7,245 nt of DNA from a virus (Duplodnaviria > Heunggongvirae > Uroviricota > Caudoviricetes), in IMG/VR virus record IMGVR_UViG_2537561510_000012; one strand, written 5' to 3'. Shown in pieces: positions 3,001-6,000 of the stretch; position 1 is the stretch's first letter, and each line of letters begins with the position of its first letter. The position numbers are program-made.

Positions 3001-6000
3001 GCAACTGGTTGTCGCAGTGCCAGCACAACACCATTGCGCCGGTACCATAACGGTGAATGACGGTTTCACTGTGGTGATAATCGCCGTGTGGCCACTGGCA
3101 GGATTTAACATGGCGCAGTAACCAGTCAGACAGTGCGCCAGCGCCACCAGCAGCACGAATCACTCGTTCGTCGCTGAAAAATGGCAGTAATGATTTATCC
3201 TCCGCCAGCGGCTGGCGAACGGCAGGAACGACCCCGGACGGCAGATTACGCATGCTTTTCGGTTCCGGCTCCACCAGTACCCGGGTATTGTGGAATACCG
3301 GCATGGATTCACGGCCCGGCTTAACGATCACCAGCCCGAGTTCCGGTACCAGAACAGGTCGAAGTAATACCCGCACGTTACCTCCAGATGCGTTGCTGGA
3401 ATGTGCGGGACGGACGCGGTGGGCGTTCGGAGTAAGGAAGCCTGACGGAGATTATCCAGTGACGATAATCGAGACTGAGGGCTTTCTTAACCTCGTATCC
3501 GCGCCTGCGGTAACACTGAATCAGCCATTCAGCCTGTTCTTCGGTGCAGGGGTCGTGCTGATACCAGTCAGATTTGAATGCATGAGAACGCCGCCCGTGC
3601 CTGCTGGCAGGGGCGGCAGAGTTATCCGAATTGTAAAATTTGGTATCGTGCGCCATCTGTTTTCTCTGCTGGCGCAGCAGGTGCCAGTTGTTCAGGCTGA
3701 CGGATGGATTGTAAACCAGAACGACCAGAAAAAACAAAACCCGCCGAAGCGGGTTAAGTGCGGGTGCGTTGAGGATGCCTGACACATCAGCGGTGGCGAG
3801 GGATTTCTCCCCCGCCTGGTCTCTTACTCCTCAGGTTCGTAAGCTGTGAAGACAGCGACCTCCGTCTGGCCGGTTCGGATTCGTACCTCGCAGAGGTCTT
3901 TCCTCGTTACCAGTGCCGTCACTATGACGGTTAAACAGATGACGATCAGGGCGATTAACATCGCCTTTTGCTGCTTCATAACCTGCTTCTCCTTGCCTTT
4001 CGGCGCGTAAGAGGCTAACCTACGTTTGTGAAGCATAGATTGGGCCTCAGATTAATGTTAAGCGTCTTGCAGGACGCGTAATGTTAACTGGGGCTTTTCT
4101 CTGTCTGCCTTACGGTGGCATGCCCGAGGCAGACAGCCTCAAGCACCCGCAGCAATTCTACTTAACTCTCGCTTTACAGCAAACCGTTTTGCCCGATATG
4201 GGAATTCCCATACGGAATGAATTCAGTTCCCCAGGCGCTCCATCAAAAACACAACCAGGCAGTAAACACCCACAACAGCAATAACAGCCAGAGCGCCTTC
4301 CATTACCAGTGAAATATCATCCGACATATTCCCTCCCTTGGTGTGAATCCCGGCGAACGTTTTTACCCCCACCGACAAATAACATATACTAGAAAAGCAA
4401 TAGCTATAGCAACGCCTGCAAATGCATCTGGCCGGCTCATTGGTTCTCCCCCTGTGTCGCTTCTACTGCGATCTGACTGGCGTATTCGTTAATGGTAACG
4501 ATAAGTTCTTGCTCGGCCTCATCCAGACAACTACCGATACCTCGCCTGTCCACTTCAGAAGCATCGAAATCTGCACGAAGCCTGGCGACCTTCAGGATTG
4601 CGGACAACACCTCATCAGGGATTGCCGGAGAGTTGGTTGACGTTTCCGAGATTATCCGAAAATTATTGGTTGACGAACCCTTATTTTCCCGAAAGTTTCC
4701 AGCCTGAAGCATGGCGGCGCGGTGACACCAGATAATCCAGCCAAGCGCCATATCCCATGCCATGTATTCTCTATCGCCATTTTTTGCTCTGCGGCGATCT
4801 ACAGATTCCCCGAAACGCTTCTCCATAAATAATTCATAGGCTGCCCGTTCATCCGATACTGATGCCAGTGATGCCAGTGCAATTTTTAATGCGGTAAGCA
4901 TGTTGTTTTGATCTTCATCGAGTCCGAACGGTATTTCATCCCGTGATGACTCAATTCCGGTAATCGTGTTCTGTAGCCATTCTTTGGTTAATTCAGTCAT
5001 TTTTCACTACCGCCCTTTCGGGCGGTCTCCTGATGTTCTGAGGGTGCAGGAATCCCTCCGGTTAAGGATTTAATAAAAATCATTTCTGATTTAAATTTTC
5101 AGTGTTTAGTTGTTGGTTTATAGCCTTTATGCTTCGGCCTTATTTCTCAGCCATACACAAACAGGACCATCTTCGGTGTCATGTATCGAACCGATAAACC
5201 ATCCCTCACCTTCTGGTCGCTCAGGTTCCCATGCTGAAATATCAGGGCCATCTGCGTCCAGATTAAAATCATCTTCATCCATACTACGGATAGCCCACTG
5301 AAGATTATTTTTCTCCATCCAGGCGTTAAACTCTTCCGTTGAAATATATTCCCGACCATCACAGAATTTTTCATATTCAGGATGCGTCCAGCAGCCATAT
5401 TCATTACGTTCCACTGGCATTTCTTTAATTACGCTCATTTACCCCCCTTATTTAATTTTCTACGACACTTTTTACAATCATCTGGACTTTCGAATGTATC
5501 CGGCTCACGCTCATTGCCAAAATACATCCACCCACCGCAAATACTTGTTATTTCACCTTCAGCAAAATAATGATGTTTTTTCGCCATAAGTGACCTTGCC
5601 CAGCCCGGATTCGTTTTACTCACTTGTTGCCTCCTTTGCGAAGCTCTGCGACTAACTCGTCACATATGTGCGTCAAAGAGCAAAGTTTGATTGCTGGATG
5701 TTCGCGCACCATCTCCACACCCTGCGCCCGCAATTCTGCCAGAAAAGCGTAGGGGTCAGTTTTTTCACTGTGGTACATGGCATCATAGATAATCATTGCA
5801 GCGACACCTGCCTGTCCTGCATCTGTGACGGATATATGCTCAAGGGCTACGGCCATTGCGTGTTTCAACCTCTCATTTTCCACCTCAAGCACCACACGAT
5901 TAGCCTCCAGCTCTTCTATGCGTTTTTTTGCTGCTCCCAGCTCAACACGCAGCTCCTGATAGTTAATCTCGCTCATTCTCCTTCCTCCCGCACTGCTGTT

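Follow-up and report, generated by a model that had tools for sequence, protein, structure and literature searches.

In the Qin prophage of E. coli K-12 the genes relB, relE, hokD, rem and ydfU follow one another in that order, and a sequence-only reading of a related locus, which gave this order correctly, raised the question of what kind of gene stands there in place of relBE. The locus lies in a stretch of 7,245 nucleotides (IMG/VR record IMGVR_UViG_2537561510_000012), the whole of which we call the window. In it the reading had placed a soluble protein of 187 residues, regarded as unclassifiable and as having a hairpin-occluded ribosome-binding site (RBS), followed by a 34-aa peptide, hok, an ORF in the position of rem and a ydfU-like gene, and it took this arrangement for a cargo swap that might harbor an undescribed defence, exclusion or toxin-antitoxin (TA) module. 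The 187-aa ORF itself proved to be real, being annotated as a protein-coding gene by PGAP, and our analysis leads, with moderate confidence, to a different account of it: the gene would encode a shuffled helical early accessory protein, transcribed from pR, translated from a split RBS and coupled to a peptide of 25 residues.

The window is part of a lambdoid prophage of E. coli O157:H7, with 100% identity to O157:H7 prophages, and its minus strand carries the early-right operon, comprising P, accessory genes, hok/sok, DUF968 and RusA. The gene order in the O157:H7 prophages is cro-YdaT-O-P-DUF1627-...-187aa-34aa-hokD-DUF968-RusA-Q; in the window's prophage copy Q is missing and rusA is truncated. 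Copies that are at least 99% identical and retain an intact ORF occur in about 345 complete genomes. A search for sigma-70-like promoters on the minus strand at 5000-5130, upstream of the 187-aa gene, found none, and the sole terminator-like site in the scan lies 3' of hok. On this layout the 187-aa ORF, placed between replication genes and nin/Q region, would be a delayed-early accessory gene of the prophage, probably transcribed as part of the pR operon. The features of the locus are collected in Table 1.

Table 1. Features of the 187-aa gene, its leader and the genes downstream of it; coordinates are those of the window.
Feature	Coordinates	Strand	Basis or remarks
hokD-type toxin CDS, 51 aa	3824-3979	-	PF01848, E = 3e-23
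Complete hok leader / sok antitoxin region	3974-4148	-	Rfam RF01794, 114.9 bits against a gathering score of 59
34-aa single-TM peptide gene, strong Shine-Dalgarno (SD) sequence AAGGGAGGG	4223-4327	-	PGAP-annotated
25-aa single-TM ORF MSRPDAFAGVAIAIAFLVYVICRWG, unannotated	4363-4440	-	start overlaps 187-aa stop (ATGA)
187-aa CDS	4437-5000	-	PGAP hypothetical protein WP_000137954; acidic, pI 4.6; predicted all-helical
Last ~10 codons of 187-aa CDS, homologous to DUF551 gene 3' end	4437-4466	-	alignment
Module C, aa 129-181, acidic helical hairpin	4458-4616	-	phrog_14306; pLDDT 67-76
Low-complexity linker, aa 101-128, predicted disordered	4617-4700	-	pLDDT 28-46
Module B, aa 48-100, near-invariant GW..RAAMLQ end	4701-4859	-	phrog_660
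Module A, aa 1-47, helical hairpin, near-invariant IALASL end	4860-5000	-	phrog_3323 and phrog_5117; alignment
Portable leader: UCCUU (5064-5068), GAGGG/CCCUC stem (5040-5058), SD, hairpin	5002-5074	-	conserved
Hairpin ACCGCCC-GAAA-GGGCGGU, 7 bp, GNRA tetraloop	5009-5026	-	-14.1 kcal/mol alone; 14 leader variants
SD AGGAG, directly 5' of hairpin	5027-5031	-	GGAG invariant in 14 of 14 unique variants

The description of the 187-aa protein as motifless held for Pfam, NCBIfam and PADLOC, none of which matched it, and failed for the PHROG families. Matches were obtained with phrog_14306 (E = 1.3e-34, residues 93-181), phrog_660 (E = 1.2e-17, residues 48-98), phrog_60 (E = 2.4e-07, residues 1-187) and phrog_3323 (E = 2.8e-05, residues 1-47), all of them families of unknown function, and the PHROG matches fall on separate modules of the protein. 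As many as 4326 homologs were recovered, mostly named DUF551 domain-containing, and its modules recur in 1049 clusters at 50% identity, where they match singly and at varying positions. Of 60 close relatives, 43 contain the DUF551 domain and one a dATP/dGTP pyrophosphohydrolase domain; among the 145 module-sharing representatives at 50% identity, 33 carry DUF551, six Ead_Ea22 and one Lar. In the alignment the relatives display modules A and B, the linker and module C with DUF551 appended, and modules A and B each also occur alone in other proteins, module A in many of the representatives. The C-terminal part is likewise combined with different partners: in the protein P0139 residues 176-263, lying between its Ead_Ea22 and DUF551 domains and including module C, are 80% identical to residues 94-181 of the 187-aa protein, and two further proteins (P0125 and P0127) have the same DUF551-less C-terminus (…IAVEATQG..Q) behind other N-termini.

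In the 187-aa protein itself DUF551 (PF04448), taken as a domain of ~68 residues with a W..PLPEPP end, gave no Pfam match at E<=0.1, nor was the Ead_Ea22 coiled-coil domain (PF13935) found; pairwise comparison with the 933W Ea22-like (BLASTP E = 0.56) and EaA-like proteins produced no significant match. A search 3' of the stop codon detected no DUF551 remnants past the last ~10 codons, whose resemblance to a DUF551 gene end is one of DNA sequence. DUF551-bearing relatives fill exactly this slot in other prophages. Stx, P22-like and mEp phages have the modules in abundance in their exo-xis 'ea' region, there without the peptides or hok, and hundreds of 'ea'-type proteins contain them, usually with a portable DUF551 domain at the C-terminus and sometimes with the Ead/Ea22 coiled coil at the N-terminus. 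Judged by sequence comparison, the 187-aa gene belongs to a very common shuffled family, of which it is a DUF551-less representative, and is fairly ordinary rather than an exotic cargo. The main value of this result is a corrected picture, in which an apparently exotic cargo at a TA hotspot becomes one arrangement of a very large family. This shuffled and uncharacterised family of early accessory genes of E. coli prophages extends to Shiga-toxin phages, in which Ea22-type proteins influence the lysis-lysogeny decision.

An AF2 model of the protein, built on a 60-sequence alignment, is all-helical with a disordered linker and of low confidence (pLDDT 52). A profile search of PDB sequences with the protein found nothing, and a Foldseek search of the model against the PDB returned nothing below E = 1, an outcome that is uninformative at such confidence. 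The profile and structure checks proposed in the sequence-only reading were accordingly blank for Pfam, the defence HMMs and the PDB, and informative for the PHROG families, which matched module by module. The pI is 4.6 for the whole protein and 4.1 for module C. Values of pN/pS are 0-0.35 in module B, where substitutions are very few, ~1 in the linker, and 0.6-1.2 in module C, where the substitutions are again few and the value could reflect weak constraint. The protein is an acidic, predicted all-helical mosaic of three independently shuffled modules and a disordered linker, most likely without enzymatic activity. It would act in lytic development or in the lysis-lysogeny decision by binding a protein of the host or of the phage; a binding role of this kind is suggested as the most likely one by the architecture and the relatives, and a lysogen-expressed defence or TA module is unlikely.

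At the start of the gene the reported 7-bp GC stem with its GAAA loop is present in both the MFE and centroid folds (z = -3.3); its 3' end stands 8 nt from the ATG and its 3' arm is predicted to be 100% paired. The expression 'occluded RBS' is inaccurate because the canonical AGGAG stands 5' of the hairpin and not inside it. The linear distance from AGGAG to the AUG is 26 nt, which exceeds the 15 nt beyond which an SD was assigned to a split RBS, and it falls to 8 nt once the hairpin loops out 18 nt, which lies in the range of 5-11 nt that a stable hairpin should restore. The duplex of AGGAG with the anti-SD has an energy of -7.4 kcal/mol, and the hairpin-to-start distance is 5-8 nt across the 14 unique leader variants. 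Changes in the hairpin amount to two C-to-U substitutions that keep G-U pairs, one A/G at the closing pair and one that is disruptive; compensatory double substitutions were not found among the leader variants. An enhancing role of the hairpin, by bridging, is more likely than one in hiding the RBS. The split RBS would then drive translation of the 187-aa gene, with the hairpin bridging SD and AUG. The earlier suggestion of translational control is retained to the extent that folding of the RNA around the start codon probably influences translation, with the difference that the hairpin most likely bridges SD and AUG.

The opposite possibility, that the hairpin represses because the SD is GGCGG in its 3' arm or that AGGAG is sequestered by UCCUU, with translation taking place only when the structure is opened, seems to us unlikely. 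It is consistent with a duplex of -6.6 kcal/mol that GGGCGGUAG, 8 nt from the AUG, can form with the anti-SD and with the invariance of the 3' arm as against three substitutions in the 5' arm. In the long leader, moreover, AGGAG is predicted to be only 20-40% unpaired and the upstream UCCUU can pair with it, and the net effect of the leader structures on translation could be repressive. However, a fully paired 3' arm in a GNRA hairpin of -14.1 kcal/mol would nearly abolish initiation; the GGAG 5' of the stem is invariant in all 14 variants, short UCCUU-less leaders included; the hairpin-to-start distance is kept throughout, as expected of a bridged RBS; and the only upstream ORF whose translation could unfold the hairpin through coupling (28 aa, 4997-5083) shows no conservation among the other leader variants. 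Two other candidate functions of the hairpin were rejected, namely that of an intrinsic terminator, as it is followed by AGUGAAAAAUG and no U-tract and the scan finds no terminator at 5000-5040, and that of a boxB/nut site, for which the loop is GNRA-like but the position presumably wrong.

The leader is not confined to this gene. It was found in 2613 of 5426 E. coli genomes, in both early operons and 5' of at least five unrelated genes with different N-termini; the hairpin sequence was looked for in the literature without result. A portable AGGAG-hairpin leader that resembles a split RBS is carried by about half of the complete E. coli genomes, as a cassette shared by several unrelated genes.

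Downstream, the 34-aa peptide is a real gene, as had been proposed: in addition to its SD and annotation, its variation across 57 haplotypes comprises 7 synonymous versus 4 conservative replacement sites, and its stop codon is kept through a TGA-to-TAA change. It had no tblastn match in phage genomes and a single weak, chance-looking match in PADLOC-DB v2 (E = 0.027). The gene inventory of the sequence-only reading was incomplete, the 25-aa ORF that overlaps the 187-aa stop codon having been overlooked. The SD of this ORF, GGGGGAG, sits inside the last ~10 codons of the 187-aa gene, and this form of the ORF is absent from a collection of 15 billion proteins. The ATGA overlap would couple the translation of the 187-aa gene to that of the 25-aa membrane peptide. 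The neighboring locus is an intact hok/sok type I TA system, with a Hok/Gef toxin and a sok/mok leader, and a mok-like ORF at hokD reaches to 4036 on the minus strand. The arrangement peptide-sok-hok recurs in 671 of 5426 genomes. The anticipated co-occurrence of the 187-aa gene with the 34-aa peptide was observed in every context examined, and we regard this linkage as inherited from DUF551-type genes; the last ~10 codons are still homologous to the DUF551 3' end. The two tiny membrane-peptide genes, of which one is unannotated, show tight linkage to hok/sok and offer candidates for small-protein work on EHEC prophages.

The slot directly upstream of hokD is polymorphic, a relE-hokD junction being present in 1165 of 5426 genomes, and another variant has a doc-type TA just downstream of hok. 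K-12 Qin has the same downstream neighbors as the window, namely hokD, an unannotated 92-aa ORF and ydfU/DUF968, at 88-100% DNA identity, whereas the 187-aa gene, the two peptides and the sok/hok leader are replaced there by relBE. Qin also has rem, an insertion found only in K-12, which the window lacks; the ORF formerly assigned to the rem position is not rem and matches the 92-codon ORF, unannotated in K-12, that lies between rem and ydfU. In the window hok/sok is intact whereas relBE of K-12 replaces the hok leader, and for this reason the difference is not a simple cargo swap; of that proposal the polymorphism of the slot is what remains.

These features bear on several other explanations of the gene. 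That the 187-aa protein forms, by itself or together with the small peptide(s), an undescribed defence, exclusion or TA module at the Qin relBE site would fit the variable slot with its relBE and doc-type alternatives, the two tiny membrane peptides and hok/sok that always follow the gene, and a family without known function. We consider it very unlikely, as we found no evidence for a defence or TA role: no family of the PADLOC-DB v2 defence HMMs matches the protein, no Pfam or NCBIfam TA domain of a type II (RelBE-like) system was found in it, the minus strand upstream of the gene showed no promoter-like site, and the gene lies within an early lytic operon. Moreover, the abundance of the same modules in the 'ea' region without peptides or hok speaks against such a module, and descent from DUF551-type genes in the same slot explains the peptide linkage. 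A bolder reading, by which an Ea22/DUF551-type protein, the coupled 25-27-aa peptide, the 34-aa peptide and hok/sok would form a membrane-acting exclusion or abortive-infection unit and, separately, the AGGAG-hairpin leader would be a mobile and self-contained cassette for translation initiation, exchanged among genes by lambdoid phages, appears decidedly unlikely; if true, this block would include never-described small peptides. What survives of the earlier interpretation is thus the polymorphic slot, the peptide linkage and the structure at the start codon, to the exclusion of exotic cargo, defence/TA function and occlusion; of its observations, the ORF, the hairpin and the Qin order stand, and the labels 'unclassifiable', 'hairpin-occluded RBS' and rem-position ORF were corrected.

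Loss of function offers another explanation, by which the gene is a functionless, decaying remnant of a DUF551-type gene, deprived of its C-terminal domain within a defective prophage. The domain carried by most close relatives is indeed missing, only the last ~10 codons of the DUF551 gene are left, pN/pS is near 1 in module C and the linker, and the prophage copy has itself lost Q and part of rusA. We nevertheless hold decay to be unlikely, given that the ORF is intact in the ~345 genomes with near-identical copies, that the DUF551-less C-terminus recurs behind different N-termini, that module B, where counts are very small, has few replacement changes compared with synonymous ones and that the conserved translation leader is retained. 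The acidity of the protein and of module C and the early-operon position would also suit an early anti-defence factor, such as an acidic inhibitor or DNA mimic acting against host restriction or abortive-infection systems, and among relatives these modules are found joined to a Lar restriction-alleviation domain and to a MazZ-like dATP/dGTP pyrophosphohydrolase. Such fusions are rare, however (1 to 2 of 145 representatives), and known anti-restriction proteins are unmatched by sequence or by structure, the latter with a low-confidence model, which makes this role very unlikely.

The DUF551 or 'EaA-like' proteins of lambdoid and P22-like phages include YfdS of E. coli, and many DUF551 proteins have modules A and B and the linker in their N-terminal parts at 79-98% identity. 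They occupy the same slot as the 187-aa gene, upstream of 27-aa and 34-aa peptides and hokD, and their genes have the same last codons and the same ATGA overlap with a small ORF. Unlike them, the 187-aa protein has no DUF551 domain and ends with module C. With regard to the leader, T4 genes 38 and 25 have split RBSs, in which the SD lies 22 and 27 nt from the AUG and an intervening hairpin cuts the spacing to 5 and 11 nt (PMC3014915). The leader of the 187-aa gene is similar in that the SD is too distant linearly and a stable hairpin shortens the spacing; it differs in that the predicted element is a portable leader of several unrelated genes of temperate lambdoid phages, the long form of which has an extra upstream stem and the anti-SD-like UCCUU. 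Finally, Ea22 proteins are described as oligomeric mosaics with acidic C-terminal domains, and DUF551 as a portable domain (PMC10834534). The Ead/Ea22 family, including lambda Ea22 and its Stx-phage variants, resembles the 187-aa protein as a mosaic of a helical N-terminus, a variable middle and a portable acidic C-terminus, although the 187-aa protein lacks the Ead_Ea22 coiled coil and is encoded in the early-right operon rather than in the exo-xis region. The role reported for Ea22, the binding of partners in lytic development or the lysis-lysogeny decision, matches the one that we propose for the 187-aa protein.

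The 187-aa gene lies in the early-right operon, which occupies the minus strand of the window. Positions 2080-7245 match, at 99.9-100% identity, an E. coli O157:H7 prophage integrated next to tRNA-Ser/mtfA. The order in this reference strain is cro, YdaT, O (DnaT-like), P, DUF1627, four small genes, the 187-aa gene, the 34-aa gene, hokD, the 92-aa gene, DUF968, RusA and Q, and all contigs with the exact 34-aa peptide keep it. On the minus strand, nothing resembling a promoter was found ahead of the 187-aa gene, and nothing resembling a terminator before the one that follows hok, which suggests from context that the gene would be transcribed within the pR delayed-early operon. 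At the other end of the window (1-2314), rusA is shortened to 85 codons and fused to the C-terminal 430 aa of a SASA/DUF6645 esterase, and 27 complete O157:H7 genomes share this junction, at 96% identity. The Q antiterminator, tRNA genes and TerB/DUF3927 of the reference prophage are missing from the window, and late-gene activation should not be possible in this copy of the prophage.

Coordinates of the features discussed (window positions unless a locus is named)
Feature	Position	Strand	Remark
187-aa ORF	4437-5000	-	PGAP: hypothetical protein
Module A	aa 1-47		ends IALASL; from alignment
Module B	aa 48-100		ends GW..RAAMLQ; from alignment
Low-complexity linker	aa 101-128		from alignment
Module C	aa 129-181		from alignment
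Conserved leader	5002-5074	-	
Hairpin ACCGCCC-GAAA-GGGCGGT	5009-5026	-	ends 8 nt before ATG
Second stem GAGGG/CCCUC	5040-5058	-	in long leader, 5040-5068
UCCUU	5064-5068		in long leader
25-aa ORF, single-TM	4363-4440	-	ATG overlaps TGA of 187-aa gene (ATGA)
Palindrome, 23 bp	4193-4215		between 34-aa gene stop and hok promoter region
sok/hok leader	3974-4148	-	Rfam, 114.9 bits
IsrK-like match	3734-3815	-	
IsrK-like match, K-12 Qin	L002 5030-5111	-	
Terminator-like hairpin	3738-3755		
92-aa gene	3378-3656	-	phrog_1212
92-codon ORF, K-12 Qin	L002 4307-4585	-	NC_000913.3 1644306-1644584
doc-type toxin and partner, strain 13E0725	L013 2783-3466		
118-aa protein	5620-5976	-	starts MSEINYQELR
Shortened rusA	2057-2314		
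Esterase part	784-2076		

The sequence-only reading had found no assignable motif in the 187-aa protein; this holds for Pfam, NCBIfam and PADLOC, none of which returned a match, but PHROG profiles match the protein piecewise, at aa 1-47, 48-98 and 93-181, and phrog_60, a large family, gives a long weak match. Searching 5.8 billion proteins recovered 4326 homologs, the majority named "DUF551 domain-containing", and their alignment delimits modules A, B and C; in relatives module C is followed by an extra linker and a DUF551 domain, both absent here. An exhaustive HMMER search over cluster representatives at 50% identity showed that 1049 clusters share these modules, the best-matching stretch being A, B or C alone at varied positions in proteins of 69-463 aa; the modules are shuffled. 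DUF551 is present in 43 of 60 close relatives and a dATP/dGTP pyrophosphohydrolase domain in one, while 145 representatives include DUF551 (33), the Ead_Ea22 coiled coil (6), Lar (1) and a few HTH domains. One homolog (P0139) combines Ead_Ea22, a segment 80% identical to aa 94-181 and DUF551, so that module C is the central part of a protein of the Ea22 type. Given that the 187-aa protein fails both the DUF551 and Ead_Ea22 Pfam domain tests and has no pairwise match to the Ea22-like and EaA-like proteins of 933W, it belongs to neither Pfam family and is a new combination in a known, uncharacterised shuffled family. Two further homologs (P0125, P0127) bear the same C-terminus (…IAVEATQG..Q) without DUF551 behind other N-termini; hence, the DUF551-less form is recurrent and no single accident. 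Three genes upstream of the 187-aa gene in the same operon, the 118-aa protein weakly matches Ead_Ea22 (E = 0.004), indicating a second Ea22-like fragment.

The Qin order relB-relE-hokD-rem-ydfU, correctly given in the sequence-only reading, had placed this gene at a toxin-antitoxin position and led to the proposal of an undescribed defence, exclusion or toxin-antitoxin function. A lysogen-expressed defence or toxin-antitoxin role is unlikely and gained no positive support. By analogy with the role reported for Ea22, the 187-aa protein would instead be a non-enzymatic, probably oligomeric binding protein acting in lytic development or the lysis-lysogeny decision. Mosaics of this kind are described for Ea22, where DUF551 is a portable domain, the C-terminal parts are acidic and the proteins, which are tetrameric, favour lysogeny (PMC10834534). 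The 187-aa protein is acidic (pI 4.6), and its low-confidence AF2 model (pLDDT 52) is all-helical, with two helical hairpins and a disordered linker; sequence and fold searches of the PDB returned nothing. On very few substitutions, pN/pS is 0-0.35 in module B, where synonymous change exceeds replacement change, near 1 in the linker and 0.6-1.2 in module C.

Other E. coli prophages carry in the same slot a DUF551 protein of 194 aa; a 27-aa ORF comes next, then the 34-aa peptide and hokD, and in degraded copies the slot is occupied by DUF551 gene remnants. At the DNA level the last ~10 codons of the 187-aa gene, which carry both the Shine-Dalgarno (SD) sequence of the small ORF (GGGGGAG or GGAGGTG) and its ATGA overlap, are again homologous to these DUF551 genes. 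The pairing with the peptides, suspected earlier for the 34-aa one, is therefore real, yet inherited from DUF551-type genes. The overlapping 25-aa ORF (MSRPDAFAGVAIAIAFLVYVICRWG), overlooked earlier and unannotated by PGAP, is disrupted in only three of 119 related loci (116 intact), and an in-frame indel of 6 nt sets its 27-aa form apart; a collection of 15 billion proteins does not contain the exact 25-aa sequence. The 34-aa ORF (MSDDISLVMEGALAVIAVVGVYCLVVFLMERLGN) has a strong SD, and its 57 DNA haplotypes bear a coding signature: seven synonymous against four conservative replacement sites, an ATG/GTG change at the start, and a stop kept despite a TGA-to-TAA change. Both are predicted single-pass membrane peptides matching no known family, and the pair is undescribed. 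Downstream lies a near-perfect palindrome (CCGATATGGGAATTCCCATACGG), which may act as a binding site for a protein or fold as an RNA hairpin where the peptide message ends (3').

In K-12 Qin, homology to the window begins only ~55 nt upstream of the hokD start codon, the whole hok leader being replaced by relE. The sok/hok leader is complete in the window, whereas Rfam finds none in K-12 Qin because relE abuts ~70 nt upstream of hokD (L002 5276-5346); the K-12 hokD locus is thus a truncated form. Both arrangements are common, with peptide-sok-hok in 671 and the relE-hokD junction in 1165 of 5426 complete genomes. The ORF earlier assigned to the rem position, the 92-aa gene, is not rem, a K-12 insertion missing from the window; the K-12 Qin homolog of the 92-aa gene is an ORF of 92 codons, intact, which lies between rem and ydfU and lacks annotation in the RefSeq record. 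Strain 13E0725 has a doc-type type II toxin and a small partner directly downstream of hokD, replacing the 92-aa gene; the cargo on either side of hok is variable. IsrK, an sRNA of Salmonella Gifsy-1, gives a weak match over its full length in Rfam (27 bits against a gathering score of 50). The match spans the hok transcript 3' end and the one hairpin that resembles a terminator, a short way upstream of the 92-aa, DUF968 and RusA genes.

The leader of the 187-aa gene is conserved at ~94% in 2613 of 5426 E. coli genomes (BLAST, 146-nt intergenic query). The genes behind it differ, including DUF7167, a 155-aa mEp460 gene, DUF4014 (early-left region of Stx phages) and others, and its short form directly follows the upstream gene's stop codon. 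The MFE fold and the centroid fold both contain the hairpin (z about -3.3; -14.1 kcal/mol in isolation). Across 14 unique leader variants with at least five unrelated N-termini behind them, the hairpin is kept, GGAG directly 5' of the stem is invariant and the stem lies 5-8 nt from the ATG/GTG, so that the SD-start distance is 24-27 nt linearly and 5-8 nt with the hairpin formed. Within the stem, two C-to-U changes preserve pairing as G-U, the closing pair shows an A/G change, and one further change disrupts pairing; there are no compensatory double changes. The sequence-only reading of a hairpin-occluded ribosome-binding site was right as to the stem-loop, whose 3' arm holds an SD-like GGCGG predicted to be 100% paired, but the canonical GGAG sits 5' of the stem. 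Some negative control of translation is possible in the long leader, since UCCUU can pair with AGGAG, leaving the latter 20-40% unpaired. The CCGGAGG of this leader serves directly, in another prophage, as the SD of a gene starting 7 nt later. A terminator was ruled out for want of a U-tract, and a 28-aa ORF running through the hairpin is not conserved. The finding as a whole is largely explained and fairly ordinary. The hairpin probably bridges the SD and AUG of the 187-aa gene, as judged from T4 genes 38 and 25, where the same arrangement of a far SD, intervening hairpin and start was experimentally shown to enhance initiation (PMC3014915); as a probable new case of this known type of split ribosome-binding site, the leader is notable for being portable.
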